Assembly (NCBI GenBank): GCA_009779745.1
Contig: WRDR01000002.1
Location: forward strand, 67,477-131,476
Direction of reading: 5' to 3'
DNA from: Alphaproteobacteria bacterium
Lineage (GTDB): Bacteria; Pseudomonadota; Alphaproteobacteria; UBA9219
DNA: 64,000 nt
Part shown: positions 3,164 through 60,126 of the stretch, one piece after another
How positions within the stretch are numbered: the first letter of the stretch is position 1
How the letters are laid out: every line of letters starts with the position of its first letter
Position numbers and translations under genes: made by a program
The notes under the pieces: model-generated
Databases searched by the model: none
The model's input: the letters and a program-made list of their open reading frames with translations, nothing else
Told to the model about the DNA's origin: nothing

Positions 3164-3226
3164 TTTCCAACGCTATCTTACAGTTAAGGCATACACTTTT
3201 AGGAATACGACTTAATAGTTAAGATA

Positions 3227-3262
3227 ATGTGAAATGTGGAGTGTGGAGTGTGAAATTGGGAA
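3227..3262. repeat. Purine-tract half element (gtgaaatgtggagtgtggagtgtgaaattggg) in the divergent promoter region
   Basis: Same GTGGAGTG unit as the hairpin repeats at 14189, 17311, 21552, 24098 and 56075. No complementary arm is present here. Confidence 0.5.
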
Positions 3263-4196: not shown

Positions 4197-6779
4197 TTAC
4201 CTACCAATAACCCGTATACCGTCAGCAACAAAGCCGTCTCCGCCTTCTAAGAAAAGGTTATAAACCGTACTCTTGCCTGCTTTCGGCTCGATAGTTTTTA
4301 CTTCTTCTATCTTACCGTCAGCTTTCACGAGTTTATCTCCAACCTTTATCTCACCGGCTCGGACAAGCTTACCGTCTGATAATAAAACAGGGTGAGCAGA
4401 AGTAATCTCCAGATTGTTGATTCTCATATACTCCATGTCTCCGGTTATAGTCATTTTTTTAACTTTAGCCGGTTTGAGGGCAGCTTTTGGTTCTGATAAG
4501 TTAAAGCCCATCACCATGTCTCTGTCCCTTACATCAACGATAGCTTTAACGGAACCGTCCGCCATTGCAATCTGAGCTTTTGAAGGCAGGCAGACATGGA
4601 TAACAGGAGTACTCAAACAGTCCAAGTCTTTCTCAGAAATAATAGTGCCAAGGATACCTTTCTCTTTAACCTCTTTACGTACTCTATTCAGGTCGCTCCT
4701 CTTGAAAAACATATAGGCACTGCTACTACCTCTCCCTTGCTGGGCTTCCTGGTGGGTCGAGTAGTACCCGTCTTCAGAAGTACCTATATAACTCTGTCCT
4801 AGTCTAATCCCGTATGCAGCAAGATTGTTAGCGATTTCCTCCCACCTAAAACGATCACATGTGCTTACACACGGAGTAGGATTAGTACATGTCCGCTGAA
4901 AAACGCACTTTCCTTTATCGTCTTTATGTATATTTCCTTCAGGGTTTATTGGCTCCGGTATATACATGTCCGGATTATCCTTTACACACGTTTCACAATC
5001 TTCAAAAACACCTGTAGACCGCATACACTGACGAGTGGCTGTTATTGTTATTGACGATTGACAGGCTAACTTAGGACATTTAATAGTGCCGTCCCAATAT
5101 CCTTGTATTTCAGTATCTTCCGGACCAACAATTTTTCTTTCACAAGAATCCGTTCTCTCTTTCACGTTCATATTCTTATACCAGATATCCGCAGTCGGAC
5201 TGGAGACTATTGTCGACATACCAGACAAATTGCCGCTTTGAGCAGCATCTATAAAGGATATTAACTCTTTATTTGTTCTTGCAGGTACTAAAAATGTCTT
5301 GCAGCCTCCGGTACCCGTGCTGCCGCCGCCGCTTATAAACTCCTTAATCTTGTCGTCCAGAGCAGATAAATCACAGTTGTCAGCATTAGTGGTGTTATAT
5401 ACATCCTTGCAATAAAAGGTTCCGTCCTCAGCCGTAAATTCAAACGCCATAGCCCCGGACACATCATAAAAATCACCCGGATAAACAGGCGCACCTTTCT
5501 TAACGGTGCTGCTGAGATCTTCTAAAAATCTTCCGTCTGCCGGATAAGACACTTGTGTATGCTGGGTATTATTCGTACCTCTCCACGGGCATATATCCTC
5601 ATTCTTTGGATTAGTACAATCAGCGGTAGGCTCATCAACAAAAGTTATCCCCTCTTGAGGAACCCAAGGAAAACGCCAATACGTCATACGAGCTGCTCCG
5701 GTACTTCCAACAACAGGAAAAGCGTCCGGCAAAAATAAATCCACAAAGACATAATCATCGTCAACTTCGCCGTACTGATAGTATTTTATACAGGTTTGTC
5801 TTCCATAAAAACCGTCCCAAATCAAACGTTCTTCAGGAGAACACTCCTGAAGCACGGTTTCAATACGGAGTACGGGTCTGCTGCTGTGCATTTGTTTAGA
5901 AGGTCTCTTATAGCCTGGCATCATCGGCGGCATTTTTTCACAAAGAGCACCAGACAAGTTAATCCTCTCGTTTGATTCCCTAGCCTTTTCCTTAGCTTTC
6001 ATAGCCTCAAAAGCTTCCGAAACACAGGTATCGTTTATTATAGCATCTACTTCTTTACGTTTAAGTTCTTCATAAAACTGTTTTGCATAGGGCTCGAATA
6101 TTATATCGCCTGCGGTTTCTTTTATATAATCTTCCACTGTCACAAAACGCCAATCGGAAACAAATATATTTTCGTTCTCTATATTATGTTTACGGTCAAA
6201 TAACCGCAAATCACTACTGAAGACCTGCAAATATCTCCAAGGACATTCATCTACAGAGCAAGGCACTCCCTCACCTCCTTGAGATAGAAACTCTTTTATC
6301 TTTTCTTCCATAGCGTATATATAACAGCCTCCTTCAACAGGAGCATGATCATCACAGTTATGCTCCGTGTCGCCTGTATAATACAATGCAGCAAGCGGAC
6401 TAAGCAGCCAAAGTCCGCAGAAATCCTTGTCATTTTCTGTTATACAAAGCTTTTCCGGACAAACTGCACTGTTACGATACGGCAGGTAGTATCGTGATAT
6501 ATCGCCAACATAAGCTGATCTGCCTTCTCCTTTATAATCAACAGCATACATTAAAATATCATTGTGGTTTAGATTTCCCGTACATGTAACAGAATTATTA
6601 GCCCCTTCTTTAATCGTATGCATTTCAGCAGGAATTTTTTCGTCCGGCAGTCTTCCCCAAGCCGCTTGCCAGTCGAAGGGAACAGCAATATTTGTGCTTG
6701 CCGCAAAGGCATTCGGAGCAAAAAACAATCCGGTAACAAAGACTGCCGCAGTAAGGAATTTACCAAAATACCGTGTCAT
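4197..6779 (-). CDS. Secreted cysteine-rich 860-aa protein with a C-terminal Hint (Hedgehog/intein-like) autoprocessing domain
   Basis: Sec signal peptide (...FAPNAFA/AST). More than 35 Cys in the N-terminal ~720 aa. Internal repeat EEKIKEFLSQGGEG / DDKIKEFISGGGSTG. C-terminal Hint blocks: CLPSKAQIAMADGSVKAI, TSAHPVLL (TxxH), VYNLFLEGGDGFVADGIRV. No terminal HN and no C-extein. Confidence 0.75.
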   Translation of the reverse strand: MTRYFGKFLTAAVFVTGLFFAPNAFAASTNIAVPFDWQAAWGRLPDEKIPAEMHTIKEGANNSVTCTGNLNHNDILMYAVDYKGEGRSAYVGDISRYYLPYRNSAVCPEKLCITENDKDFCGLWLLSPLAALYYTGDTEHNCDDHAPVEGGCYIYAMEEKIKEFLSQGGEGVPCSVDECPWRYLQVFSSDLRLFDRKHNIENENIFVSDWRFVTVEDYIKETAGDIIFEPYAKQFYEELKRKEVDAIINDTCVSEAFEAMKAKEKARESNERINLSGALCEKMPPMMPGYKRPSKQMHSSRPVLRIETVLQECSPEERLIWDGFYGRQTCIKYYQYGEVDDDYVFVDLFLPDAFPVVGSTGAARMTYWRFPWVPQEGITFVDEPTADCTNPKNEDICPWRGTNNTQHTQVSYPADGRFLEDLSSTVKKGAPVYPGDFYDVSGAMAFEFTAEDGTFYCKDVYNTTNADNCDLSALDDKIKEFISGGGSTGTGGCKTFLVPARTNKELISFIDAAQSGNLSGMSTIVSSPTADIWYKNMNVKERTDSCERKIVGPEDTEIQGYWDGTIKCPKLACQSSITITATRQCMRSTGVFEDCETCVKDNPDMYIPEPINPEGNIHKDDKGKCVFQRTCTNPTPCVSTCDRFRWEEIANNLAAYGIRLGQSYIGTSEDGYYSTHQEAQQGRGSSSAYMFFKRSDLNRVRKEVKEKGILGTIISEKDLDCLSTPVIHVCLPSKAQIAMADGSVKAIVDVRDRDMVMGFNLSEPKAALKPAKVKKMTITGDMEYMRINNLEITSAHPVLLSDGKLVRAGEIKVGDKLVKADGKIEEVKTIEPKAGKSTVYNLFLEGGDGFVADGIRVIGR

Positions 6780-7125: not shown

Positions 7126-7194
7126 AACTATTCCGCCCAAAGCAGCCTCCAATTCTACTTTTTATCTTTTTGATATAGGCTCTGTTTTTCTCTG

Positions 7195-7204
7195 CCGAAA
7201 AAAA
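7195..7204. repeat. Left target-site duplication ccgaaaaaaa of the IS
   Basis: An identical 10-mer directly flanks the other IS end at 8489-8498. Confidence 0.6.
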
Positions 7205-8488
7205 CACTGTCAAACCACAAGTTAAAATGAGACACTTTCGCCAAAAGTTAAAATGAGACTGGAGGGTTAATAAGAGAGAAGCAAGCAACTAAACTGTCAC
7301 CTAAAAAGGTGACGAATATGAATAAAAAAGACTTATATACACGGTTGACAACAATAGAAAGGCTTGCTTCAGGCACAATTTCTGTTTTTTTGCAATGTCC
7401 GTGCTTAACCTGAGCAAAAGCCAAACTTTTAAGCTGTTAAAACAATACCGAGAACACGGCTTACAAAGCATTAAACACGGACTATGTAACCGTCTGTCAA
7501 ACAATCAAGGCAATTCGTCTGTGAAAGAGCAAGTGCTCGGGTTAATACGCAGCAAATATTATGATTTTGGACCTACGCTTGCCAGCGAACACTTGCTTGA
7601 AGAAGAAGGCATACAAGTTCATCCGGAAACGCTGCGCATATGGATGAAACAAGCAGGATTGGCACATAAAACACGCAAGCGCAAGCCATATCGCCAGCGC
7701 AGGGATCGCAAAGAATGCTTTGGCAAGATGCTGCAGATTGACGGCAGTTTTCATCATTGGTTCGGGGTGGATAAACCAAAAGCCTGTTTGTTAAACTTGA
7801 TTGATGATGCGACTTCACACAATTTGTGTCTGTTTGATCATGAAGAAACATCGTATACTGCCTGTATAGTTCTTTGGCAATGGATACAAAAATACGGCAT
7901 TCCGCAAAGCATTTATTGTGACAGAAGAAATGCCTATATTTCCAGCGAACTATCAGAAAGCTCGGGCTTCTTCGGACAAATGTGTAAAAGATTGAGAATA
8001 CAGATTATTCCGGCTTTCTCAGCGCAAGCAAAAGGACGGGTTGAACGCTCAAATCAGACGCATCAAGACAGGCTTGTTCCCAAGATGAGGCTGCACAACA
8101 TAACAACAATAGAAGCGGCAAACCAATATTTGCAAAGACATTATCTGCATTATCACAACAGCAGGTTTGCAAAACAATCTGCGAGTTTTGAAGATGTTCA
8201 TAGCAAATTGCCTCAACACACAAAACTGGATGACATTTGTTATTTGGAAGAAACAAGAAAAGTTAACAACGACTGGACTATAAAGTTCAGAGGAAGAACC
8301 TTGCAGATTACACGGAAAAACTATTGTCCCGCTAAATCTGCTGTAATGGTACGATACTCTATAAACGGTCATACGGATATTTACTATAAAAACGAACATC
8401 TCAGCTATATTACGCTGAACTCATAACCTCAGAGTCTCATTTTAACTTTTGGCGAAAGTGTCTCATTTTAACTTGTGGTTTGACACTG
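7205..8488. mobile_element. Complete insertion sequence (~1.28 kb) with ~54-bp terminal inverted repeats and one DDE-transposase gene. IS481-like; the family assignment is tentative.
   Basis: Left end cactgtcaaaccacaagttaaaatgagacactttcgccaaaagttaaaatgagact. Right end is its reverse complement (agtctcattttaacttttggcgaaagtgtctcattttaacttgtggtttgacactg), 53/53 identical from tgtcaaacc. 10-bp direct repeats flank both ends. Confidence 0.85.
7395..8426 (+). CDS. IS transposase (rve/DDE integrase-core type with N-terminal HTH)
   Basis: N-terminal HTH LSKSQTFKLLKQYREHGLQSIKHG. Central D...D...E-type catalytic region (QIDGSFHHW, IYCDRRNAY, RVERSNQTHQD). Lies between the TIRs. Confidence 0.75.
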   Translation: MSVLNLSKSQTFKLLKQYREHGLQSIKHGLCNRLSNNQGNSSVKEQVLGLIRSKYYDFGPTLASEHLLEEEGIQVHPETLRIWMKQAGLAHKTRKRKPYRQRRDRKECFGKMLQIDGSFHHWFGVDKPKACLLNLIDDATSHNLCLFDHEETSYTACIVLWQWIQKYGIPQSIYCDRRNAYISSELSESSGFFGQMCKRLRIQIIPAFSAQAKGRVERSNQTHQDRLVPKMRLHNITTIEAANQYLQRHYLHYHNSRFAKQSASFEDVHSKLPQHTKLDDICYLEETRKVNNDWTIKFRGRTLQITRKNYCPAKSAVMVRYSINGHTDIYYKNEHLSYITLNS

Positions 8489-8498
8489 CCGAAAAAAA
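8489..8498. repeat. Right target-site duplication ccgaaaaaaa
   Basis: Matches 7195-7204. Confidence 0.6.
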
Positions 8499-9509: not shown

Positions 9510-9616
9510 TGGAAAAGTGGAAAGTGGAAAGTTAAAATAGGAATATTTATAAGTAGTATTTCTCTGAAAATGGCTGTATAAATATTTCTACTTTCAACTT
9601 TTCACTTTTAACTTTC
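9509..9616. repeat. Hairpin repeat, GAAAGTG family. Arms tggaaaagtggaaagtggaaagttaaaat / ctactttcaacttttcacttttaactttc with a ~50-nt loop.
   Basis: Complementary purine and pyrimidine arms read directly. Lies between phaR and the permease gene. Confidence 0.7.
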
Positions 9617-10734: not shown

Positions 10735-12806
10735 TGCGTCCTATAGTTTTATATCCAGTGTTTTCTCAGCTAACCGCTTTAGACGGCATCGGCTTTAAGA
10801 CATATGCTTTCTACAAAAAGCTATGCGGAGAGACGATAAAGGATTTGATTTTTCATCTGCCTGTAAATGCCATAGACCGCTCCAAAAAAGTTTCTCTGTC
10901 AAACGCAGAGGAAAACAAGATACACACTCTTTCCGTAAAAGTTCTGGGGCACAACAAGCCTGCCAAAACAAGCAGACCTTATGTCATTGCCGCCACTGAC
11001 GGGACTGATACTATGAACATCACGTATTTCAGCACAAGCAGAGATTATCTGCCTGAACTGTATCCTGTAGGAGCGGAAATAGTAATCAGCGGGCTTTTGG
11101 AAAAGTATAACGGGCAGTGGACTATGCTTCACCCTGATTATGCAGTGCCTAAGAATAAAGAGAATGAGATTCCTATGCACGAACCGGTGTATCCGTTGTC
11201 GTACGGGCTGACCGGAAAAATGGTTCGGAAAAGCATAGAAAAGGCTTTGGTGCGGGTGCCGGAATTGCCTGAATGGATAGACGAACATCTTATGAAGCAG
11301 AAGGGCTGGAGCAGTTGGAAAGACGCTCTTGTGAATGCGCATACTCCCACAGAGTTCTGTGAGACCGATAAGGACAGAAGAAGGTTGGCGTATGATGAGC
11401 TGCTGGCGGATCAGCTGGGGCTGGCTATTATCCGCACGCACAATAAGACTCTTAACGGAAGAAAATTCGTAACTTCCGGAGACGCTGTAGAGAGACTCAA
11501 AAAATCCTTGTTGTTTTCGCTGACAGAATCTCAAGAGACCGCTGTCAATGAGATAATTTCAGAGCTGGAATCGGACAAAAGAATGTCCAGACTCCTGCAA
11601 GGAGATGTCGGCTCCGGAAAAACTATAGTAGCGTTAATCGCTATGCTGCACGTTGCAGATTCCGGCTCTCAGGCTGCTCTTATGGCTCCTACCGAGATTC
11701 TGGCGAAACAGCATTTTGAGACTCTGTCGAAATTTCTGGAACCTATCGGATACGAAATAGGACTCATCACAGGCAAAGGCAAATCCAACAACAGACAAGA
11801 GACTATCGAAGATATAAAGACCGGAAAGCTGCGAATGGTCATAGGGACTCACGCATTGTTTCAATCCGATATAGTTTTCGATGACCTAGGACTCGCCGTC
11901 ATAGACGAACAGCACAAATTCGGCGTACAGCAAAGAGTCCAATTATCCAACAAAGGAAAAGGCGTAAACATATTGTCGATGACCGCTACTCCTATACCGA
12001 GAACTTTGCTTTTGACTGCGTTCGGAGACATGGCAGTGTCGAGGCTGTCCGAAAAACCAAAAGGAAGGCAAAAGATAGAAACCTCTTTAATGAATTCCTC
12101 CAGAATCGCAGAAATAGCAGAAGCTCTGAAAAGAAAAATACAAGACGGCTCGCAAGTTTACTGGGTATGTCCGCTGATAGAGGAATCAGAAGCTCTCGAT
12201 CTTAACGCTGCGAAAGACAGAGCCGGTTATTTAAAAAATATTTTTGGAAAAGATGTGGTCGGACTGGTGTACGGCAAGATGAAGAGCGAGGAAAAAGATT
12301 CCATAATGAGTGATTTTGTATCCGGAAAAATCAAAATCTTAGTAGCCACCACAGTAATAGAAGTAGGAGTTAATGTGCCGAATGCTACTCTTATGGTTGT
12401 AGAGCATGCGGAGAGATTCGGACTGGCGCAGCTTCATCAGCTTAGAGGACGCGTAGGCAGAGGAGAAAAAAAATCGCACTGTATTCTTATCTATCAGGCT
12501 CCTCTCGGCATCATGGGCAAGGCTAGGCTCAAGATGATGAAAGAGAACGAAGACGGTTTTTTGATCGCAGAAGAAGATTTGAGATTAAGAGGAGCCGGCG
12601 AAGTACTGGGCACAAGGCAAAGCGGAGCTAGGTATTTCAGACTGGCTGATTTGGAAAGAGACAAAGACCTTTTGGATATAGCGAATTCTGACGCTAAAAA
12701 TATATTGGCTCAAGACCCTAAGCTGGAAAGCGAACGAGGCAAAGCGTTGAAGATGCTTTTGTATTTGTTTGAGAAAGACGCAACCGTGCCGCTGATTAGG
12801 AGTTAG
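10734..12806 (+). CDS. recG: ATP-dependent DNA helicase RecG
   Basis: Wedge domain. Helicase motifs GDVGSGKT, DEQHKFG, SMTATPIPRT, QLHQLRGRVGRG. Confidence 0.9.
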   Translation: MRPIVLYPVFSQLTALDGIGFKTYAFYKKLCGETIKDLIFHLPVNAIDRSKKVSLSNAEENKIHTLSVKVLGHNKPAKTSRPYVIAATDGTDTMNITYFSTSRDYLPELYPVGAEIVISGLLEKYNGQWTMLHPDYAVPKNKENEIPMHEPVYPLSYGLTGKMVRKSIEKALVRVPELPEWIDEHLMKQKGWSSWKDALVNAHTPTEFCETDKDRRRLAYDELLADQLGLAIIRTHNKTLNGRKFVTSGDAVERLKKSLLFSLTESQETAVNEIISELESDKRMSRLLQGDVGSGKTIVALIAMLHVADSGSQAALMAPTEILAKQHFETLSKFLEPIGYEIGLITGKGKSNNRQETIEDIKTGKLRMVIGTHALFQSDIVFDDLGLAVIDEQHKFGVQQRVQLSNKGKGVNILSMTATPIPRTLLLTAFGDMAVSRLSEKPKGRQKIETSLMNSSRIAEIAEALKRKIQDGSQVYWVCPLIEESEALDLNAAKDRAGYLKNIFGKDVVGLVYGKMKSEEKDSIMSDFVSGKIKILVATTVIEVGVNVPNATLMVVEHAERFGLAQLHQLRGRVGRGEKKSHCILIYQAPLGIMGKARLKMMKENEDGFLIAEEDLRLRGAGEVLGTRQSGARYFRLADLERDKDLLDIANSDAKNILAQDPKLESERGKALKMLLYLFEKDATVPLIRS

Positions 12807-12851
12807 GAATTAGGAAATAAAAAATAATTCATAATTTCTAATTCCTAATTT
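12796..12851. repeat. Hairpin repeat, GGAATTAG family: attaggagttaggaattaggaaat ... atttctaattcctaattt
   Basis: Perfect complementary arms between the convergent recG and bamE. Confidence 0.75.
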
Positions 12852-13989: not shown

Positions 13990-14178
13990 ATGGCAGTTCC
14001 TAAACGAAAAACTTCTAAGTCGGCTCGCAATATGCGCCGCTCTCACCATGCTCTTAGTGCTGTCAACAGCATAGAGTGTCCTAATTGCGGCGAAGTAAAG
14101 CTGCCTCATCATGTGTGCAGTGCTTGCGGTCATTATAACGGTAAACCTTCAATAATCACGTCTAAGAAAACCGCTTAA
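13990..14178 (+). CDS. rpmF: 50S ribosomal protein L32
   Basis: [22 protein letters not shown]...CPNCGE...[10 protein letters not shown]. Confidence 0.95.
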
Positions 14179-14188
14179 AGCTGAATAT

Positions 14189-14263
14189 GAGTGTTGAGAG
14201 TGGAGTGTGGAGTTGGTACATATTCTTAACTCCAAACTCCACACTCCAAACTCCACACTTCCC
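14189..14263. repeat. Hairpin repeat, GTGGAGTG family. Arms gagtgttgagagtggagtgtggagtt / aactccaaactccacactccaaactccacacttccc. Loop ggtacatattctt.
   Basis: Read directly. Lies between rpmF and plsX. Confidence 0.8.
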
Positions 14264-15372: not shown

Positions 15373-16324
15373 AACTACATTTTTAAACTGCGGAGCGTAT
15401 TTGCCGGAAAATGCCGTGACTAATGCGGCGTTGATAGCAAAGCACGGGCTGGATAGTTCTGACGAGTGGGTGGAAAGACGCACAGGCATTAAGCAAAGGC
15501 ATATAGCCGGTGATAATGAAAAAACTTCTGATTTGGCAACCAGAGCCGCAGGCGAAGCGTTGCAAGCGTCAGGGCTTACTATAAAAGATATAGATGCGGT
15601 TATAGTTGCGACTACAACGCCGGACCTTGATTTGCCTGCAACGGCAGTAAAGGTACAGGTTAATCTTGGAATGAATCATGGCTTTGCATTTGATGTACAT
15701 GCCGTGTGTTCCGGATTCATATACGCTATAACTGTTGCGGATAATCTGATAAAAGCCGGACAGATTAAAAGGGCTGTTGTTATCGGCGCAGAAACCTTGT
15801 CAAGGATTGTGGATTTCACGGACAGGTCTACGTGCTTTCTGTTCGGAGACGGAGCCGGAGCCGTTATTCTTGAGGGCAAAGAAGGCGTGCATAATGACAA
15901 CAGAGATCAGGGCATCTTAGGATCTATTCTGCACTCGGACGGAAGATATTATGATGTCTTGAAGACTAACGAAAAACGCTTTATTGCAATGGACGGAAAA
16001 GAGGTGTTCCGCCACGCTATCGTGAATATGTCTTCCGTGATAGATGAATTGCTGGAAAAGACCGGACTTGCGGAGTCTGAAATAGACTGGCTGGTGCCTC
16101 ATCAGGCGAATGAGAGAATCATAGATAATGCTGCCAAGAAGCTGAAGCTGCCGGAGGAAAGAGTAGTAAAAACAATTTCTTTTCATGCGAACACTTCTGC
16201 GGCATCAATACCGCTGGCTCTCTGTCATGCTGTTAAGAGCGGAGAAATACAAAGAGGTCAGATTGTTCTTATGGACGCTATGGGCGCAGGCTTTACATGG
16301 GGCGCTGCTGCGGTGAGGTGGTAA
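15365..16324 (+). CDS. fabH: 3-oxoacyl-ACP synthase III (FabH). The start is taken at MIRTTFLN, which overlaps the plsX stop region.
   Basis: Catalytic Cys region AFDVHAVCSGFIYA. His/Asn region WLVPHQANERI ... GAGFTWGAA. Confidence 0.9.
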   Translation: MIRTTFLNCGAYLPENAVTNAALIAKHGLDSSDEWVERRTGIKQRHIAGDNEKTSDLATRAAGEALQASGLTIKDIDAVIVATTTPDLDLPATAVKVQVNLGMNHGFAFDVHAVCSGFIYAITVADNLIKAGQIKRAVVIGAETLSRIVDFTDRSTCFLFGDGAGAVILEGKEGVHNDNRDQGILGSILHSDGRYYDVLKTNEKRFIAMDGKEVFRHAIVNMSSVIDELLEKTGLAESEIDWLVPHQANERIIDNAAKKLKLPEERVVKTISFHANTSAASIPLALCHAVKSGEIQRGQIVLMDAMGAGFTWGAAAVRW

Positions 16325-16361
16325 AAGTGAAAAGTGGAAAGTGAAAATAATTTCACTTTCC
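16323..16361. repeat. Hairpin repeat, GAAAGTG family: aaaagtgaaaagtggaaagtgaaaat / atttcactttcc
   Basis: Lies between the convergent fabH and ispB. Confidence 0.65.
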
Positions 16362-17296
16362 TAAAAATTTCTATAAACAGTATCGTCCGCTATTTTGATA
16401 AGAGCTTCTTTCATAGGGCTGTCTTTGAAAATATTCAAAGCCTGTTTCGCCAACTCTCCGTAATGCTTGGCGTACTCCAGAGAAGCCTCTGCGGCTTTAT
16501 ATTTTTTCAATAAAACCAGCGCATTTGAAAGGTCTTCCTCGGAACGCTCTTCCTTTGAAAACATCTCTTGCCACGATGTCATTTCAGAATCACTGCTCTG
16601 CTTCACAGCCAAAATAACAGGCAGCGTTATTTTGCCTTCCATAAAATCATGACCTGTCTTTTTGCCGAATGCGCCCTCTTCCGCCTCATAATCCAGAATA
16701 TCGTCTATAATCTGAAACGCTATGCCCAAATTAAGCCCATATTCTCTTAATGCCTCTTCTTGTTCTTTACCCGCCTCTGAAATTATAGCTCCAATCTGAC
16801 ACGCTGCCGAAAATAATTCGGCAGTCTTGCTTTGTATTATTTCCAAATACCGGGCTTTTGTCAGTTCTATGCTGCTGCTTGCTTCTAATTGCAGAATCTC
16901 TCCTTCCGCAATAACAGATGCTGTCTCCGCCAGTATTTCCAACACTCTTACGGAGTTTCCTTTTATCAGCAAATCAAATGATTTGCTGAATAAAAAATCT
17001 CCGACTAAAACACTGGCCTTATTTCCAAAGACCACATTCGCACAGAGCTTGCCTCTGCGCAGAACTCCTCCGTCCACCACGTCATCATGCAAAAGCGTAG
17101 CCGTGTGCAGAAACTCTATTCCCGCAGCTATAAGGCAATGCCCTGTTCCGGTATATCCGCAGAGTCTGGCACTGGCCAGTGCCAAAAGCGGACGCAGCCT
17201 CTTTCCTCCTGCCGCCATTATATAGCCGGCCAGTTTTGATATAAGCTCTGCTTTGCTTTCTATACGCTCTGAAATGAGTTTGTCTACCGTGAGCAT
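16361..17296 (-). CDS. ispB: Polyprenyl (octa-/hepta-prenyl) diphosphate synthase. The 28-codon N-terminal extension of the ORF track is repeat-derived, so the start is taken at MLTVDK.
   Basis: FARM LLHDDVVDGG and SARM FQIIDDILD motifs. The extension translates the GTGGAG repeat as PPALHTPHSALHT. Confidence 0.85.
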   Translation of the reverse strand: MLTVDKLISERIESKAELISKLAGYIMAAGGKRLRPLLALASARLCGYTGTGHCLIAAGIEFLHTATLLHDDVVDGGVLRRGKLCANVVFGNKASVLVGDFLFSKSFDLLIKGNSVRVLEILAETASVIAEGEILQLEASSSIELTKARYLEIIQSKTAELFSAACQIGAIISEAGKEQEEALREYGLNLGIAFQIIDDILDYEAEEGAFGKKTGHDFMEGKITLPVILAVKQSSDSEMTSWQEMFSKEERSEEDLSNALVLLKKYKAAEASLEYAKHYGELAKQALNIFKDSPMKEALIKIADDTVYRNF

Positions 17297-17310
17297 GTCT
17301 GCGGACAGTA

Positions 17311-17398
17311 AAGTGTGGAGTGCGGAGTGTGGAGTGTGGAGTGCAGGAGGGGAGCAGCCTATTGTCATTACCAATTTCACACTTCACATTTCACATTG
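17311..17398. repeat. Hairpin repeat, GTGGAGTG family: aagtgtggagtgcggagtgtggagtgtggagtgcagg ... ccaatttcacacttcacatttcacattg
   Basis: Read directly. Overlaps the hemY-like stop codon and precedes the ispB start. Confidence 0.75.
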
Positions 17399-21548: not shown

Positions 21549-21551
21549 AAA

Positions 21552-21622
21552 AGTGTGGAGTGTGAAGTGTGGAGTTGATGCGTATTCTTAACTCCACACT
21601 TCACTCTCAACACTCCACACTT
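21552..21622. repeat. Hairpin repeat, GTGGAGTG family. Loop ggagttgatgcgtattcttaactcc.
   Basis: Arms aagtgtggagtgtgaagtgtggagtt / aactccacacttcactctcaacactccacactt. Confidence 0.8.
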
Positions 21623-24094: not shown

Positions 24095-24097
24095 TAA

Positions 24098-24150
24098 AGT
24101 GTGGAGTGTTGAGAGTGGAGTGTGGAGTTAAGAATATGTACCAACTCCGC
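24098..24150. repeat. GTGGAGTG-family element in inverted orientation with a truncated second arm
   Basis: Core ggagttaagaatatgtaccaactcc is the exact reverse complement of core ggagttggtacatattcttaactcc at 14210-14234. Confidence 0.7.
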
Positions 24151-24153
24151 ATT

Positions 24154-29509: not shown

Positions 29510-30067
29510 TTGTGTGGATTTTCAGGGGTAAAAATGCCGTATTTCTTGCGAGCTTTCAGTGTTCTGGCACTTATAACATATTCTCCAAATTGTTATGCTA
29601 AATCTGCAATCGAGCAAATCGGCGATTATACGCAAGTCATAGTTCCGGCATATGCCTTTGGCATGGCTGTGCAGGAAGAGGGCTGGGAAGGCACAAGACA
29701 ATTTATTTATTCATTCGGAGCAATGCAGGCCAGCGTTTTGGGATTAAAATATTCGATAGATGCAAAGAGACCGAACGGATGTGATAACAGGTCGTTTCCA
29801 AGCGGGCATACTGCCGCGGCATTTAGCGGCGCAACTTTCATTCACAAGAGATATGGAATAGAAAGAGCGATTATTCCTTATATGGTTGCAGGATTTACAG
29901 GATACTCCAGAGTTCATGCGGAAAAGCATTACTGGTACGACGTAGTGGCAGGCGCAGCAATCAGCGGTTTATTCACTTGGATTTTTGTTGATGAGTATAA
30001 CTATGACAAACTTCAAGTGTCTGCAGATCCTAAATCCGTATATGTAGGATACAAAACAGAGTTTTGA
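29510..30067 (+). CDS. PAP2-superfamily membrane phosphatase with signal peptide (LpxE/PgpB-like)
   Basis: PAP2 motifs KYSIDAKRP, PSGH, SRVHAEKHYWYDV. Confidence 0.75.
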   Translation: MCGFSGVKMPYFLRAFSVLALITYSPNCYAKSAIEQIGDYTQVIVPAYAFGMAVQEEGWEGTRQFIYSFGAMQASVLGLKYSIDAKRPNGCDNRSFPSGHTAAAFSGATFIHKRYGIERAIIPYMVAGFTGYSRVHAEKHYWYDVVAGAAISGLFTWIFVDEYNYDKLQVSADPKSVYVGYKTEF

Positions 30068-30103
30068 TACTTCATACTTTCGATTTTTGCAAACTATGAA
30101 GTA

Positions 30104-30760
30104 TCAAGAAAGTAAAGTTTTATTCTCATACGGGCACAACTCCTCAACACAACACTCGGGACAATGCGGGGAGCGGGCGGTGCAGACGTACCTTCCGTGC
30201 AGCACTAAATAATGATGTGCGTTCGAAAGATACTTTTTCGGAACTATTGCCATGAGCTGCGTTTCTATGTCTTCGGGATTGTCTCCGAATGCAAGCCCCA
30301 GCCTGTTCGCTACTCTGAGTACGTGGCGGTCTACTGCTATAACCGGTTTGCCGAAAACAGAATTCAGAATCACATTCGCTGTTTTTCTTCCGACTCCGGG
30401 AAGAGTCAATAAATCTTCCATGTTGTCCGGCAATTTGCTGTGAAACCTCTCAACCAATGCCTTGGACAGCTTTATTATATTTTCAGACTTCGAATTATAA
30501 AATCCTACAGTCTTTATATATCCTATCAGTCCTTTCTTGCCTAATTTCAGCATCTCTTCCGGAGTCTTTACTCTTTCAAACAGACTCTTAGTCGCCTTGT
30601 TGACTCCTTTATCTGTGGCTTGCGCAGATAACACTACGGCAACAAGGAATGTGAACTCATTCACTGAATCCAACTCTGATTTAGGCGCAGGAATAGACTT
30701 TGCGAGGAGGGCGAATATTTTTGATATGTTGTTCATTGTTTTACACTTCACTTCTAACAT
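30104..30760 (-). CDS. nth: Endonuclease III (Nth)
   Basis: HhH-GPD (LPGVGRKTANVIL). C-terminal 4Fe-4S CTARSPHCPECC..C. Confidence 0.9.
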   Translation of the reverse strand: MLEVKCKTMNNISKIFALLAKSIPAPKSELDSVNEFTFLVAVVLSAQATDKGVNKATKSLFERVKTPEEMLKLGKKGLIGYIKTVGFYNSKSENIIKLSKALVERFHSKLPDNMEDLLTLPGVGRKTANVILNSVFGKPVIAVDRHVLRVANRLGLAFGDNPEDIETQLMAIVPKKYLSNAHHYLVLHGRYVCTARSPHCPECCVEELCPYENKTLLS

Positions 30761-30761
30761 T

Positions 30762-30953
30762 TGTCATTCCCGTGAAGGCGGGAATAGGGCAAGCCTGCTG
30801 TAATCAAGCAATCTAGTTAGTACTATAACAACATAATATTGAAAGAAAAACTCTATTCAAACGCCTCACTAATAAAATTGTATCTTGTACCAACCTTGCC
30901 CACTCCCGCCTACGCGGGAGTGACAAGCGGAGGCTTGGGAGTGACAGCCGGAG
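30762..30953. repeat. GC-rich palindromes ttgtcattcccgtgaaggcgggaatagg (30762-30789) and cactcccgcctacgcgggagtgacaagcggaggcttgggagtgacagccggagg (30901-30953)
   Basis: ATTCCC-N8-GGGAAT inverted repeat. Related copy at 90-117 (reverse complement), and 39783 / 52195 variants. Confidence 0.6.
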
Positions 30954-39757: not shown

Positions 39758-39950
39758 TAGTGTGGAGCTGCTGTCCCTCTGATTGTCATTCCTGCTTTCG
39801 CAAGAGTGACAAAAAATTATAAATAATTTTTTGTTAAAAACCACTGCCCCGTCTTTTCATTCGCCTGTCGGCGAATGAAAATCCACCCCTTCGCCAGCGA
39901 AGGGGAATACGTGTGCACAGCAACCTTCAACTCCACACTTCACCGCACCC
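39758..39950. repeat. Composite nested repeat. A split GTGGAG-family element (arm tagtgtggagctg ... arm caactccacacttcac) is interrupted by three GC-rich palindromes: tgtcattcctgctttcgcaagagtgaca, ttttcattcgcctgtcggcgaatgaaaa and ccccttcgccagcgaagggg.
   Basis: Read directly. The palindromes also encode the C-terminal ~30 aa of the plsC ORF. Confidence 0.6.
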
Positions 39951-42815: not shown

Positions 42816-42824
42816 GGGGTTAAT

Positions 42825-42863
42825 CAGGAGTTAGGAATTAGGAATTAGTATATCTAATTCCGC
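42825..42863. repeat. Hairpin repeat, GGAATTAG family: caggagttaggaattaggaattag ... ctaattccgc
   Basis: Same unit as 12796-12851. Lies upstream of ftsE. Confidence 0.65.
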
Positions 42864-51415: not shown

Positions 51416-52210
51416 ATGACAATGACTGCATATATTCTCTTGCCAATAAGAATCTTTTTGTTTTTTGTATTTTTATTCGTAATAGTTCCGTTCGGCTTTA
51501 TTTGCAAAAAGCTGGCTCCGGCTTTTGCATATAAGGCTGCGCGGTTTGCACATAAATACCTATACATTATCTCCGGACTGCGAATAAACATCATAGGCAC
51601 TCCGTCTAAAACCGCTCCTACGCTGTTTGCGTCCAATCATGTTTCGTACTTGGATATTCCGGTTCTGGGCTATATAGTGCTGTGCCGTTTTATAGCTAAG
51701 TCAGAAGTAGCGGCATGGCCCGTGTTTGGTTTTTTATCCAAGCTGCAGAACACTATTTTCATAGAGAGAAAGCCTGCTCAAAGTCTCGAACAAAAGAACG
51801 AATTATTAGAGAGCATAGAAAACAAAGACAACCTTGTGTTTTTTCCGGAAGGCACTTCTTCCAACGGAGAAAGCGTGCTGCCGTTTAAAAGCAGTCTGTT
51901 CAGCATAACAGAGACTGCGAAAAAAGAGGGACTGCATATGTTAGTGCAGCCTGTTTCCATAGTCTTAAGAAAAATAAACGGGAAACCAGTAACAACAGAG
52001 GACAGAGCAATTTACGCATGGTACGGAGATATGACGCTGGTACCGCATTTACTGAAAGTGTGGCAGCAGAAGAGTATAGATGTAGATGTTATTTTTCATG
52101 AAGTGCTGGATCCGTATTCTTTTGAAAACAGAAAAACGCTGGCGCACAGAGCGTGGGAGATGGTGAAATTAAGTGTGGAGTGTGGAGCTAGTACGTATTC
52201 CCTCCCTTAA
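51416..52210 (+). CDS. olsA: Lyso-ornithine lipid O-acyltransferase OlsA (PlsC family)
   Basis: NHVSYLDIP (HX4D) and FPEGTSSNG motifs. The last ~13 aa are repeat-encoded. Confidence 0.75.
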   Translation: MTMTAYILLPIRIFLFFVFLFVIVPFGFICKKLAPAFAYKAARFAHKYLYIISGLRINIIGTPSKTAPTLFASNHVSYLDIPVLGYIVLCRFIAKSEVAAWPVFGFLSKLQNTIFIERKPAQSLEQKNELLESIENKDNLVFFPEGTSSNGESVLPFKSSLFSITETAKKEGLHMLVQPVSIVLRKINGKPVTTEDRAIYAWYGDMTLVPHLLKVWQQKSIDVDVIFHEVLDPYSFENRKTLAHRAWEMVKLSVECGASTYSLP

Positions 52211-52226
52211 AAAGGGAAGGGGAATA
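52168..52226. repeat. Fused repeat: GTGGAG-family arm (aagtgtggagtgtggagctagtacgtattcc) joined to palindrome attccctcccttaaaaagggaaggggaat
   Basis: Read directly. Spans the olsA stop. Confidence 0.6.
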
Positions 52227-52228
52227 TA

Positions 52229-54769
52229 TTACCTTGATGATTCCAGCAAGCTCTTAAACAACTCTGTCTGCTTTTCCAGCTGAATGCGCATTGACAGCTC
52301 GGTGCTCTTGCCGGTTGCTCCTGCGTTCGCCAGCATCAGCGTAGCCCTGGACGTATTATCCCGTATTTCTGAGTTAAGCCTCTTCAATTCTTCTATCCGC
52401 GATACGTTCTCATCAACCTTATCCGCCAAATTGCTTATTACCGCATATATCGCTTCTTTCACATCTCCGGGCAGCATAGAGGTAAACTCCATAGATCTTA
52501 TATTCAACGCCGCCAAATCCTCCAGCCTTTGAGCTAAGTTAGACACGTTGCTGCTAAGCTTAGACAGCTCTTCGCCGGACTCCGTGCTTTGAACTCCTTC
52601 GTTCTTCTGAGACAACAACAATGAACATACTGTCTCTAAAGTGCCTATAACCGCAGTTAGGTTTTCTTCTCCTTTTATCTTATCTCCTCCTTCCGCAGCC
52701 GCCGTGTGCTTTGACGAGGCTATTCTGTCAAAGCCTTCCGACATATGCGTTTCGTGCGATGCAATCAGTCCTTTCATTTTATCAATAGCCGCAACAATCG
52801 TACTATTCTGTTCTTTAACAGAGGATACTTCTCTTTCTATTCCTCCGAACGCAGAACCTAACGCCGCAATCTGTCTCAGCACCAGATTCTGCTGGGAAAC
52901 TGTCGCACTGTTTATCTCTTCGCTGGACGGCATTTTGCCCATACTCTCGGAAAGCGACACTATGGAATCCTGTATTCCTTTTATTGTGACTCCTATAGTA
53001 CTAAGCTGGCTTGAATAGTTCGGAACATCTGTCGGCTTAGAAACCTCTCCCACAGAATCCTGTACTCCTTGCTGAATGCCTTGTATGGCTTTTTCTATCT
53101 CATTAAATTTCTCAGAGTAATCGGGTATAGCTATGCTTCCCATAGAATCCTGTATGTTTCTGCGTATGCCTCTTATAGCCTCTTCTATCTCTTTGAACTT
53201 GTCCGCATAGTCAGGAATATTAATATTTCCTGAAATACTTTTCATTGAGTTCTGCAGCCCATGTACTGCTTTTGCCATATCGGTGAACTGCGCAGAGTAA
53301 TCGTGAGTGCCTGTTGATTTAGTCAACGCCGCTACGGAATTCTTAACGTTAGTTGTAGTTTCAGACAGCACTTTGCCGCTGGCTTGAAACAGATTGATAG
53401 CTCCAAACAGCCTCTGTCCCAGCTCGTCAGCCGTAGAGGACAGTTTCTTCAAAGTATCGGACGAGGACTCTAAGTTAGCGCGCAGACTTATTTCTCCGGA
53501 CATTATAGCCTGCAGGGTCCGCGTCAGCAGCTTGCCGGTAATTTTCGTAATGTCAGCCAGATTGTCAACTTTCTCTTTCATAGAGGGCAGTATGGATCCA
53601 AACTGATCGGCTGCATTTGCATGGGCATTCTTCACCATACTCATAGAATTCGTCATATCCCGGACTGCCTGACCTAATATCTGATCGTTTCTCTTGCCAA
53701 GTTTGCTAACTTCTTCAAACACGCTGTCAATCTTAGAGGAAGCTGCTTCCATCGAAGAAGACTGCTTTTCAAACGTAGACGATATCGCCAATGCTTTTTC
53801 TCTGATTACCTCGGAATCGCCGGACAGCGACTTCATCATAGCCTCGAACAGAGAGCGGGAGCCTCCTTCAAAACGCAGTCTCACAGGCCCCTGATCGCTC
53901 ATCACCGATATGTCCGGCATATGGCTGAAGTGGTAGCGCGCCATGTCTATGGAACGGGCAAGCTCTCCTATAAGGTCCTGCCGCTCGATGCCCCAGATAG
54001 CAGTTCTCATATCGCCGTGCGACATGTTCTGAATGCTTTGCGTCAGAGAAGTAAGCGGAGACTTAGTCAGTCTCACGACTTTATTCACCCAGAAAATACA
54101 CCCTATCATAGAGAGCAGAGCAAAAATGCTGAAAATAGTAATGACTCCGGACCAAAAATTTATTTCTCTCTGATGAGTCAGCATAGAAGCCTTGTTATAA
54201 TCGGCTCTATATTTTTCCACTACCAATAGCGCAGAAGACAGAGGCAATAAATCGTACGGCGTAAGCTTTATAAACTGTTCTTCCGAAGCGGATGCCGTAA
54301 TCTTAATATCCAAATCCGAAGAGTCTTCTTCCGGTTCTTCTGCAAACGGAAGCTCTATCTTGCCAAGAACATTAAAAAACATGCTGTAAATAGCTTGCAA
54401 ATCTTCTTTTTTCCGTAAGTCCTGCGTTCCAGAGAGGCTGGCAATCGCCTTATCCGCCGCTTTGAGACTATCCTGCATTTTGCCGATGAGGACAAAATTC
54501 GGATTCATATAGTAATCCTGAGCAGCTCCTAAAAAGCCGGAATATCCTAAATGCGAGAAAACAGCGGAAACAGCGGATTCGCTTTCATTGCCGGTATTTT
54601 TTTGATTCTCCGTTGTTTCCCACAGCGCAGTTCCTGCCGTGTCTATCCGGTATTTGGAATAGCCAATTCCCACAAAGAGTACTACGTTTATGAATAATAC
54701 AACGCATAGCAATACAAAAGACGTTTTTTCATTAAGAAATGAAAAGCATGATTCTTGGTGCTGCTGCAT
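52229..54769 (-). CDS. Large membrane protein (846 aa): two TM helices, a HAMP-like linker, and long coiled-coil regions including ~27-aa tandem repeats
   Basis: TM1 LLCVVLFINVVLFVGIGY. TM2 ITIFSIFALLSMIGCIFWV, followed by HAMP-like LTSLTQSIQNMSHGDMRTAI..ELARSI. Repeats IPDY(A/S)(D/E)KF(K/N)EIE(E/K)AI(R/Q)GI appear three times. No MCP signalling or kinase domain was recognised. Confidence 0.5.
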   Translation of the reverse strand: MQQHQESCFSFLNEKTSFVLLCVVLFINVVLFVGIGYSKYRIDTAGTALWETTENQKNTGNESESAVSAVFSHLGYSGFLGAAQDYYMNPNFVLIGKMQDSLKAADKAIASLSGTQDLRKKEDLQAIYSMFFNVLGKIELPFAEEPEEDSSDLDIKITASASEEQFIKLTPYDLLPLSSALLVVEKYRADYNKASMLTHQREINFWSGVITIFSIFALLSMIGCIFWVNKVVRLTKSPLTSLTQSIQNMSHGDMRTAIWGIERQDLIGELARSIDMARYHFSHMPDISVMSDQGPVRLRFEGGSRSLFEAMMKSLSGDSEVIREKALAISSTFEKQSSSMEAASSKIDSVFEEVSKLGKRNDQILGQAVRDMTNSMSMVKNAHANAADQFGSILPSMKEKVDNLADITKITGKLLTRTLQAIMSGEISLRANLESSSDTLKKLSSTADELGQRLFGAINLFQASGKVLSETTTNVKNSVAALTKSTGTHDYSAQFTDMAKAVHGLQNSMKSISGNINIPDYADKFKEIEEAIRGIRRNIQDSMGSIAIPDYSEKFNEIEKAIQGIQQGVQDSVGEVSKPTDVPNYSSQLSTIGVTIKGIQDSIVSLSESMGKMPSSEEINSATVSQQNLVLRQIAALGSAFGGIEREVSSVKEQNSTIVAAIDKMKGLIASHETHMSEGFDRIASSKHTAAAEGGDKIKGEENLTAVIGTLETVCSLLLSQKNEGVQSTESGEELSKLSSNVSNLAQRLEDLAALNIRSMEFTSMLPGDVKEAIYAVISNLADKVDENVSRIEELKRLNSEIRDNTSRATLMLANAGATGKSTELSMRIQLEKQTELFKSLLESSR

Positions 54770-56068: not shown

Positions 56069-56074
56069 TATTAT

Positions 56075-56200
56075 TAGTGTGAAGTGTGGAGTGTGGAATT
56101 TTATAGACAAATAGCATGAGGCATACTAGATTGCTCTTGTTTAAAAAGCAATTTTTTTATATTTGCTAACTCCACATTTCACACTCTACACTTCACACTA
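56075..56200. repeat. Hairpin repeat, GTGGAGTG family with a 67-nt spacer: tagtgtgaagtgtggagtgtggaatt ... aactccacatttcacactctacacttcacacta
   Basis: Read directly. Accounts for the artefactual [15 protein letters not shown]-terminal extension of the rodA ORF. Confidence 0.75.
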
Positions 56201-56214
56201 ATCGAAGGGTTTCC

Positions 56215-59454: not shown

Positions 59455-60102
59455 GTGGAAATAGGTTCTTTAAAGCGCAAGAGAGTAAAAGCCTCTAAGA
59501 AACACTCGGCATCATCAAAACAATGGTTAGAGCGGCACCTCAACGATCCTTATGTAGCGGCAGCTCAACAGGCAGGATATCGCGCAAGGTCTGCTTTCAA
59601 ACTGTTGCAGCTGGACGAGAAGTTTCATTTTCTTCATAAGATCTCTCGGGTAGTGGATTTAGGTTCTGCTCCGGGAAGCTGGTCTCAGATTGCAAAAGAA
59701 AAGTGCGCATTCGTAGTTGCGTTGGATTTATTGCCTATGGAAGATATAGAAGGAGTAACATTTGTGCAGATGGATTTTACATCTGATGAGGCTCCTGAAA
59801 AGCTCAAGGATATACTGGCCGGAAAAGCTGATGTTGTTTTAAGCGATATGGCGCCTAATACTACAGGGCATTCCAATACTGACCATTTGCGTATAGTTGC
59901 GATTACGGAACTCGCCGCACAATTCGCTGTGGAAGTACTTAGAGAGGGAGGGACTTTTGTATGCAAGTTCTTTCAGGGCGGAGCGGAAAAGAGTATGCTG
60001 GATTTTTTGAAGCGTAATTTTAAGACTGTAAAACATGCAAAACCTAAAGCAAGCCGTTCGGAATCTGCGGAGTCGTATATTGTGGCGATGGGGTTTAGGA
60101 GA
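59455..60102 (+). CDS. rlmE: 23S rRNA (uridine2552-2'-O)-methyltransferase RlmE/FtsJ. No stop codon; the reading frame runs on into the next gene.
   Basis: RSAFKLLQLDEKF, VVDLGSAPGSWSQ, VLSDMAPNTTG and the catalytic K-D-K-E context. Homology ends at ...YIVAMGFRR, where the downstream signal peptide begins. Confidence 0.8.
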
Positions 60103-60126
60103 ATGTGGAATGTGAAATGTGGAATT
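60097..60126. repeat. Purine-tract half element aggagaatgtggaatgtgaaatgtggaatt at the rlmE/M48 junction
   Basis: Same GTGGA/GTGAA unit family. Contains an AGGAGA Shine-Dalgarno-like sequence plus ATG at 60103. Confidence 0.6.

Follow-up and report, generated by a model that had tools for sequence, protein, structure and literature searches.

What are the hairpins of tandem 7-nt units that recur between the genes of the 64-kb stretch of alphaproteobacterial contig WRDR01000002.1 analyzed here (the window), and where did they come from? One of them, element E4, is a single hairpin that takes up nearly the whole length of the 96-nt spacer between rpmF and plsX. A preliminary description of the window had listed eight such loci and read them as a mobile element resembling a miniature inverted-repeat transposable element (MITE). 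Our analysis revealed a multi-copy family confined to gene junctions, three members of which descend from one another, with arms identical to those of cassettes that carry a PF05635 (S23p) gene in other bacteria. The best reading, to which we give about even odds, is that the window copies are stem-loops like the intervening sequences (IVSs) of rRNA, lodged in mRNA spacers without an open reading frame (ORF), and not ordinary terminators.

A heptamer hairpin family confined to gene junctions

The 14-mer GTGGAGTGTGGAGT, allowing at most two mismatches, occurred 26 times in the window compared with 0.12 expected, at all eight places listed in the preliminary description. GTGGAGT-type arrays were present at each of the eight, which were rightly grouped as one family. 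Tandem 7-nt units were over-represented relative to other periods in period counts and with the program TRF, as is typical of heptanucleotide simple sequence repeat (SSR) arrays: 17 period-7 arrays were identified, whereas the other periods from 4 to 12 gave 0 to 2 and shuffled sequences approximately none. Five further heptamer hairpins or arrays with other units, absent from the earlier list, were found at 9510, 12795, 16320, 42822 and 60098, giving a family of 13 elements per 64 kb (E1 to E13), all at gene junctions; spacers make up 8.2% of the window.

Besides GTGGAGT, the arm units were of the GTGGAAA/GTGAAAA, TTAGGAG/TTAGGAA and GTGGAAT types. The number of units per copy ranged from 1.5 to 5, with arrays of approximately 4-5 units, a strict 7-nt period and a NAG triplet in every unit. 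The 5' arms were free of C and contained 28-33% T, and the 3' arms were free of G; the idea that the arms consist only of purines, with a strict purine/pyrimidine asymmetry, is therefore wrong. In paired elements the C-free (G-type) arm was always 5', the solo arrays were all G-type on the + strand, and element ends read AGTGTGG...CCACACT. A usable complementary 3' arm, of the kind claimed for all eight listed copies, was identified in five; it was lacking at 3226 and 52168 and decayed at 24143.

Three of the elements share a common core. The 25-nt sequence GGAGTTGGTACATATTCTTAACTCC was exact at 14209-14233 on the + strand (E4) and at 24124-24148 on the - strand (E8), and recurred with three mismatches at 21571-21595 (E7). 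The reported occurrence of a core in both orientations thus holds for the exact copies, with positions shifted by 1-5 nt and a third copy that is imperfect. E8 read on the + strand and E7 read on the - strand have a 34-nt arm in common with one mismatch, including the rare unit GTTGAGA (in E7 borne by the right-hand arm), and share 10 of 13 loop bases. Over 26 nt the E4 arm (+ strand) matches the E8 arm exactly and occupies the same side, but the loop of E4 is inverted. As read from these alignments, E7 and E8 differ by a flip of the whole element, and E4 and E8 by an inversion of the loop only. The common rare unit and 13-nt loop therefore mark E4, E7 and E8 as true paralogues, not convergent hairpins. 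A fourth motif resembling the core, GTACGTATTC at 52191 in E11, precedes a GC-rich mini-hairpin that belongs to a second repeat family. No match to the core pattern was found in metagenome contigs or viral contigs.

Independent assemblies of the strain from ENA, JGI and Logan gave identical element sequences, which are therefore no assembly artefact. Several contigs of other assemblies terminate at elements (L118 inside E4, L119 and L120 just before it), and contig L133, located 4.6 kb outside the window, begins with ACTCCACACTT, so the family is not restricted to the window. Taken together, the counts above chance, the core copies, the matching assemblies and the contig beyond the window establish that the family is real and extends past it. 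A library-adapter artefact was also considered, as C-free oligonucleotides resemble MALBAC or PicoPLEX primers, and was rejected because the copies are internal to long contigs and restricted to gene junctions, and because the assemblies agree independently and similar arrays occur in isolate genomes and plasmids. At the gathering score, no Rfam family matched the elements, the only two passing matches in the window being tRNAs; raising the E-value limit to 1 added only generic miRNA hairpin families, all scoring far below threshold. The units are 7 nt long and directly adjacent, in contrast to the 23-50 nt repeats, set apart by unique spacers, of a CRISPR array, and they contain GG only, where a G-quadruplex requires at least four tracts of at least three G.

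Prediction of RNA folding gave stable structures for E4 (-37.3 kcal/mol, z -6.7, on either strand), E7 (-42.4 kcal/mol, z -9.7), E12 (-52.3 kcal/mol, z -8.8), E2 (-37.2 kcal/mol, z -7.1) and E3 (-21.8 kcal/mol, z -6.6). A long terminal-repeat stem (approximately 20-30 bp) was found in all five; its length was approximately 28 bp for E7 and 27 bp for E12, E4 having 16 bp with extensions, and such lengths would suit RNase III. Twelve of the 13 elements lie in spacers and the thirteenth (E13) at a fused gene junction, and the family shows the intergenic bias and G-rich-first pairing of inverted heptamer pairs. The placement at gene ends described earlier holds for the five elements between convergent genes and the four between tandem genes; it is incomplete, with three of the 12 between divergent gene starts.

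Identical arms around PF05635 genes in other bacteria

Searching metagenomes with the 27-mer arm that contains the odd unit, GGAGTGTTGAGAGTGRAGTGTGGAGTT, brought up 27 contigs (L139-L165), which span 34-63% GC and stem from assemblies of termite-gut, human-gut and other metagenomes. The 32-mer AGTGTGGAGTGTTGAGAGTGGAGTGTGGAGTT was exact in these contigs, for example in L149, L159, L141 and L153 (the same as L166). All 27 had the same fixed ends (AGTGTGG...GGAGTT), the array never extending to the left or right, and a C-arm usually followed within 0-350 nt. L149, of 60% GC, held both E4 arms exactly, with the 33-nt 3' arm identical. Among arrays not selected for it, the odd junction was observed once, compared with 200 perfect junctions. 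The fixed ends and the rarity of the odd junction therefore identify the arm as a discrete conserved end and not a product of slippage, and an identical 32-mer across 34-63% GC suggests horizontal spread or very strong constraint. One contig with the 32-mer is catalogued as viral (IMGVR_UViG_3300028327_000284).

The exact 32-mer arm flanked a PF05635 gene at two loci, one represented by L159, L144 and L148 and the other by L141. In L159, from the human gut, a 121-aa ORF enclosed by the arms is a PF05635 member and separates mod from res in a type III restriction system. TTAGGAG units like those of E3 and E10 formed the arms at a PF05635 locus on a viral contig (L167). The window arms are thus identical to arms of PF05635-carrying cassettes in other bacteria. 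Among the heptamer-selected loci there were eight PF05635 ORFs, all of them adjacent to arrays, of which five were bracketed on both sides, two on the only visible side, and one (L104) was ambiguous. In samples selected by protein only, approximately 7 of 10 unique PF05635 loci on viral contigs were bracketed, and all six PF05635 genes on isolate plasmids had adjacent heptamer arrays: two as clear inverted G-first pairs (Picosynechococcus and Azospirillum), two direct (Pseudanabaena and Gemmatirosa) and two one-sided. The bracketing unit sequences varied by genome. PF05635 genes in general are therefore associated with heptamer arrays. These genes, annotated as "four helix bundle", were found wedged into operons, between cas6 and cas4, cas10 and cmr3, and mod and res (L181, L183 and L159). 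L183 is a Picosynechococcus plasmid; L181, a Pseudanabaena galeata plasmid, has long direct flanking arrays, with AAAAGCT repeated approximately 14 times upstream and AAAAGCC approximately 10 times downstream. A literature search found no paper linking PF05635 genes or heptamer arms outside rRNA.

Heptamer pairs of this kind were widespread. A contig scan for (GTGRAGT)x3 gave arrays in many phyla; the counts that follow are among the matches listed and refer to loci L001-L116 and L139-L165. At least 55 inverted heptamer-array pairs were identified in other genomes, of which 50 were G-first, 3 C-first and 2 ties. At least 37 pairs lay away from a locus edge, of which 34 were intergenic, often 0-30 nt from ORF ends. 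Because both strands of a palindrome read alike, the G-first order amounts to a real 5'-to-3' polarity, a possible reason being that Rho in this way never meets the C-rich arm as naked RNA. GTGGAGT and ACTCCAC arrays form the borders of repeated 190-300 nt modules in L046 (5660-6420, a Ruminococcus metagenome-assembled genome (MAG)) and L100 (400-730); the modules contain GC-rich hairpins of their own and AT-rich stretches, and that of L100 forms a single long nested palindrome.

Proposed origin and rival explanations

In Coxiella burnetii, the 23S rRNA IVS is a 428-nt selfish element whose terminal repeats form a 28-bp stem and whose loop holds an S23p ORF; its 5' stem region contains two to three tandem GACAGAT heptamers, the number varying between strains, and RNase III excises it in vitro, cutting at the first heptamer repeat (PMC4990558). 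The same arm in unrelated organisms, sometimes around a gene, fits a short gene-less derivative of a larger element, and the window elements are probably gene-less copies of a selfish element of the S23p/IVS type. Each would be a dispersed palindrome with two heptamer-array arms, C-free at the 5' side and G-free at the 3' side, around a variable middle. The elements are probably substrates of RNase III, which would cleave the perfect 20-30 bp stems once they are transcribed. Cleavage would separate the flanking cistrons and render insertion harmless even in essential operons, and would thus explain the tolerated insertions in rpmF-plsX and similar operons. Unit number would drift by replication slippage and loops would flip by recombination between arms, and we infer that the elements are mobile.

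Several observations weigh against this proposal. RNase III cleavage is argued by analogy only, from the rRNA IVSs; the solo arrays E1, E11 and E13 have no long stem, and the stems of E5 and E10 are too short for RNase III. E6 folds well only antisense to its flanking genes (-45.1 kcal/mol on the + strand, only -19.6 kcal/mol on the mRNA strand). Inspection of the sequence on either side of E4, E7, E8 and E12 revealed no target-site duplication. A tblastn search found no PF05635 gene or remnant in the window, although membership of the IVS family does not depend on an S23p ORF because ORF-less IVSs are known. The association with PF05635 is largely based on loci that were picked for their heptamer arrays, with small unbiased samples (10 and 6 loci), and some PF05635 genes have direct instead of inverted arrays (L181 and L184) or none (L169 and L172). 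Relatives with 87% TypA or 73-75% PlsX identity (56-58% GC) had 0-1 heptamer arrays per 14-22 kb, so that arrays are essentially missing at 73-75% PlsX identity, and their rpmF-plsX spacers (82-96 nt) were unrelated in sequence to that of the window; the family is therefore lineage-specific within the clade. The one closer relative, L127 (89% PlsX identity), is a 1.8-kb contig that reaches just 24 nt upstream of plsX.

Stable hairpins beginning 0-16 nt past stop codons would suit bidirectional terminators, or stem-loops that protect 3' ends like repetitive extragenic palindromes (REPs), selected at operon ends and spread by recombination. The elements were commonest between convergent genes (5 of 14 junctions compared with 4 of 35 tandem junctions), and a terminator scan of 8-27 kb of the window gave few canonical ones, 26 compared with 17 expected and mostly within genes. 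However, the elements have no U-tract or T-run and loops of at least 13 nt, outside the 3-8 nt of intrinsic terminators, and the scan flagged E5 only. Three lie between divergent gene starts, E2, E4, E6 and E13 lie within apparent operons (rpmF-plsX among them) where termination would be harmful, and E6 does not fold on the mRNA strand. We regard this explanation as unlikely.

Slippage of plain heptanucleotide SSRs in situ, with occasional inverted duplication and neither mobility nor function, would account for the differences in unit number between copies and for the (GTGRAGT)x3 arrays in many phyla. According to Mrazek 2007, whose results PMC4679880 summarises, heptamers are the commonest long SSR in bacteria; 70-75 convergent heptamer pairs with no known function occur in Xanthomonas (PMC4692102); and the rpmF-plsX spacer, at 96 nt, is about as long as in element-free relatives. 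This account fails to cover the non-repetitive loops and the rare GTTGAGA unit common to several loci, the fixed-end 32-mer that recurs exactly in organisms with GC contents of 34-63%, the strong bias in arm order and the association of arrays with PF05635 genes, and we consider it decidedly unlikely.

The strict period, the NAG in each unit and the 4-5 units per array could alternatively reflect phased sites for a multimeric nucleic-acid-binding protein, such as a pentameric S23p ring or cold-shock proteins, that would control translation or stability of neighbouring genes. S23p is a homopentameric toroid according to work cited in PMC4990558, deletion of heptamer repeats altered recF and recO expression in Nostoc (bioRxiv 10.1101/2022.06.06.494920), and the genes immediately downstream of the C-arms in E2 and E6 have no obvious Shine-Dalgarno sequence. 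With unit sequences that differ widely between genomes and no PF05635 gene in the window, this explanation appears improbable.

Classical MITEs, non-autonomous derivatives of a transposase-encoding insertion sequence (IS) mobilised in trans, are the least credible origin: terminal inverted repeats, a length of 40-190 nt, multiple copies in spacers, assembly breaks (L118, L119, L120 and L133) and longer versions with the same ends elsewhere would agree with them, but there is no target-site duplication at E4, E7, E8 or E12, the sole IS in the window (7205-8485, rve-like) has unrelated ends, and the gene in the longer versions encodes a four-helix-bundle protein and no known transposase. Of the MITE-like interpretation offered earlier, what stands is that the core-bearing copies are paralogous and not independently evolved terminators. 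The flipped core is weak evidence for mobility because a near-palindrome reads alike on both strands, and E4 and E8, with the same arm on the same side and only the loop inverted, point to inversion within the hairpin. The IS-like element itself (7193-8490) comprises a 343-aa ORF (7395-8426) with a weak match to the rve integrase core and inverted repeats of approximately 55-60 nt (7205-7260 and 8424-8485), with CTGCCGAAAAAAA present at either side, and the right repeat is where several assemblies break off.

Further candidates were rejected. RNA-level selection through the asymmetry of G-U and A-C pairs was contradicted by E6, the bias looking like plain transitions; Shine-Dalgarno mimicry by the arms does not fit the many units in other genomes without GGA; and an integron attC site is at odds with the reversed arm order and the housekeeping-gene context.

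The reading of the elements as ORF-less IVS-like stem-loops can be extended, and the wider version, all parts taken together, is tentative and in our view rather doubtful. The unexplained heptamer arrays of bacteria (the short tandemly repeated repetitive (STRR) sequences of cyanobacteria and those of Xanthomonas and Geobacter) would largely be arms of one class of IVS-like cassette. The cassettes would insert at gene junctions and in rRNA, be harmless through RNase III excision and sometimes carry a pentameric S23p/PF05635 protein; 4-5 heptamers per arm could form the phased binding site of the S23p pentamer; and horizontal spread would have carried one particular 32-nt arm through gut bacteria that range over 34-63% GC. 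Heptamer repeats and S23p/IVS elements have both been puzzles for decades, and should the two prove to be a single element, what each of them does could be tested directly. The elements also break short-read assemblies and supply stop codons, C-termini and in-frame gene fusions, and therefore need to be recognised by annotators and MAG builders.

Individual elements and relation to known systems

Coordinates and structures of the heptamer elements in the window
Element	Position	Strand	Structure and context
E1	3226..3256	+	Solo G-type array without 3' arm, in a divergent-gene spacer
E2	9510..9616	.	GTGGAAA-type arms around a 52-nt inner palindrome
E3	12795..12851	.	TTAGGAG/TTAGGAA-type hairpin between convergent recG and bamE
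E4 5' arm	14188..14214	+	TGAGTGTTGAGAGTGGAGTGTGGAGTT; C-free heptamers including the odd unit GTTGAGA
E4 loop	14215..14227	+	GGTACATATTCTT; 13 nt, centre of the 25-nt core 14209-14233
E4 3' arm	14228..14263	+	AACTCCAAACTCCACACTCCAAACTCCACACTT; G-free, ends 12 nt upstream of the plsX ATG (14275)
E5	16320..16362	.	Short GTGAAAA/GTGGAAA hairpin between convergent fabH and ispB; fabH stop inside the array
E6	17308..17397	.	(GTGGAGT)x5 arm, 30-nt middle, 3' arm decayed C-to-T
E7	21551..21622	.	Arm, loop GATGCGTATTCTT, arm; between the stop of a DUF2336 gene (21548) and typA
E8	24095..24153	.	Full 32-mer arm AGTGTGGAGTGTTGAGAGTGGAGTGTGGAGTT, inverted loop AAGAATATGTACC, decayed 3' arm
E9	39758..39945	.	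Split: short G-arm 39758-39769, C-arm 39929-39945
E10	42822..42863	.	TTAGGAA-type array with a short 3' arm; ftsE starts 7 nt downstream
E11	52168..52230	+	G-arm, core-like TAGTACGTATTC, mini-hairpin CCCTCCCTT..AAGGGAAGGGG; without C-arm
E12	56073..56202	.	27-nt terminal inverted heptamer arms, 69-nt AT-rich middle
E13	60098..60125	+	GTGGAAT-type array exactly between the FtsJ domain end (residue 214) and the M48 peptidase signal peptide

Many elements abut or overlap coding sequence. E4 begins 10 nt past the rpmF stop codon (14176-14178), E2 takes up all of the spacer between the phaR stop codon and the ATG that opens the following gene, E6 is situated between the stop of hemY and the start of ispB on the minus strand, and E8 occupies the entire 59-nt spacer of a convergent DJ-1 family gene and a kinase-like gene. 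E10 lies between divergent genes, as does E12, which has arms that are 93% complementary and fills a 146-nt spacer. The stop codons of recG (TAG at 12804-12806, inside the E3 arm), fabH and hemY lie within arrays, and two acyltransferase C-termini are encoded by elements, E11 supplying the final codons and stop codon of one acyltransferase gene. The E13 array forms the in-frame junction of a 682-aa ORF (59455-61503), whose FtsJ/RlmE methyltransferase part (residues 42-214) is fused to an M48 peptidase that has tetratricopeptide (TPR) repeats and retains its own signal peptide; either a stop codon was lost or the second gene begins at an ATG within the array.

A second repeat family consists of GC-rich mini-hairpins, TTGTCATTCCCG..CGGGAAT, CCCCTTCG..CGAAGGGG and CCCTCCC..GGGAAGGGG, often beside the motif ACGTATTCC. 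They were located at 30761-30788, 30899-30926, 39780-39915, 17358-17372 and 52193-52226 of the window and at approximately 2560-2680 of L130. Within E6, E9 and E11 they are nested, giving a mosaic like that of bacterial interspersed mosaic elements (BIMEs): the E6 middle holds a remnant (TTGTCATTACC), and the E9 arms enclose 159 nt of nested mini-hairpins. A 17-bp hairpin without heptamers (TTGATACTTCATACTTT...AAACTATGAAGTATCAA, 30064-30107) fills a 36-nt convergent-gene spacer. E1 is flanked by genes for a 996-aa protein with a weak TraC-like match only (173-3163) and an 860-aa PT-HINT domain protein (4197-6779). A 1-nt deletion at 55246 (TTCT compared with TTCTT in two ENA assemblies), probably an assembly or strain difference, splits an FtsW/RodA gene into two ORFs; the gene encodes 379 aa in L132.

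The same strain is present in JGI sample 3300010882, where Ga01233xx identifiers adjoin termite-gut MAG records, and we infer a termite-gut origin for it. The gene content of the window is alphaproteobacterial (yceD-rpmF-plsX-fabH, HemY_N, DUF2336 and PhaR), by which a cyanobacterial context of STRRs and small dispersed repeats (SDRs) was rejected. As a lead that we treat as unconfirmed, Elhai and colleagues reportedly described in 2008 cyanobacterial STRR heptamers and the SDRs of Nostoc punctiforme, said to be tandem heptamers in spacers and tiny hairpins in both orientations, in a taxon and with units different from those of the window. Kelchner and Wendel are likewise said to have described, in 1996, minute hairpin-loop inversions in chloroplast non-coding DNA. 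Their loops would flip between fixed inverted arms, as in E4 versus E8, but chloroplast loop inversion is a mutational process and not an element family.

The elements resemble REPs, their inverted doublets (REPINs) and BIMEs in being short multi-copy extragenic palindromes, in their inverted doublets and in the way that further small repeats are nested with them into mosaics (E6, E9 and E11; PMC3116915, PMC3733652). They differ in their ends and arms: REPs have a conserved 5' GTAG or CGTC and a cognate RAYT transposase, whereas the window elements have AGTGTGG...CCACACT ends and heptamer arms. No GTAG or CGTC head was found, and no RAYT gene or Y1 transposase was present among the window proteins scanned or called.

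Heptamer arrays are on record in Geobacter, Nostoc and Beggiatoaceae, and closer likenesses exist to the GGGAATC pairs of Xanthomonas and the GGGGA(C/T)T repeats of Nostoc (PMC4692102). These too are intergenic, have approximately four units, are often inverted with the G-rich array first, lie near ORF ends, are scarcer between divergent genes and have no known function. In contrast to the window units, which have GG only, theirs contain GGG or GGGG tracts and form G-quadruplexes; shared loop cores, a fixed 32-mer end and a link to PF05635 are features of the window family and have not been reported for Xanthomonas or Nostoc.

The Coxiella IVS, inserted at helix 45, shares a terminal inverted-repeat stem of approximately 28 bp, a variable loop that may hold an S23p/PF05635 gene and stem heptamers that vary in copy number, and both are regarded as selfish; short ORF-less forms of 23S IVSs are known in other bacteria. 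The window copies differ in lying in mRNA spacers, in having no ORF and in their unit, GTGGAGT instead of GACAGAT. No rRNA was found in the window, and the copies sit between protein-coding genes instead of in helix 9, 25 or 45 of 23S rRNA. RNase III excision has been demonstrated for Coxiella and other rRNA IVSs, whereas cleavage of the window elements is predicted by comparison with them. The repeat type, called unusual among known bacterial families on the strength of the mistaken strand asymmetry, thus has precedents in the inverted heptamer pairs of Xanthomonas (PMC4692102) and in the Coxiella IVS (PMC4990558). The elements, which resemble both IVS elements and heptamer-array pairs, may tie two old puzzles together.

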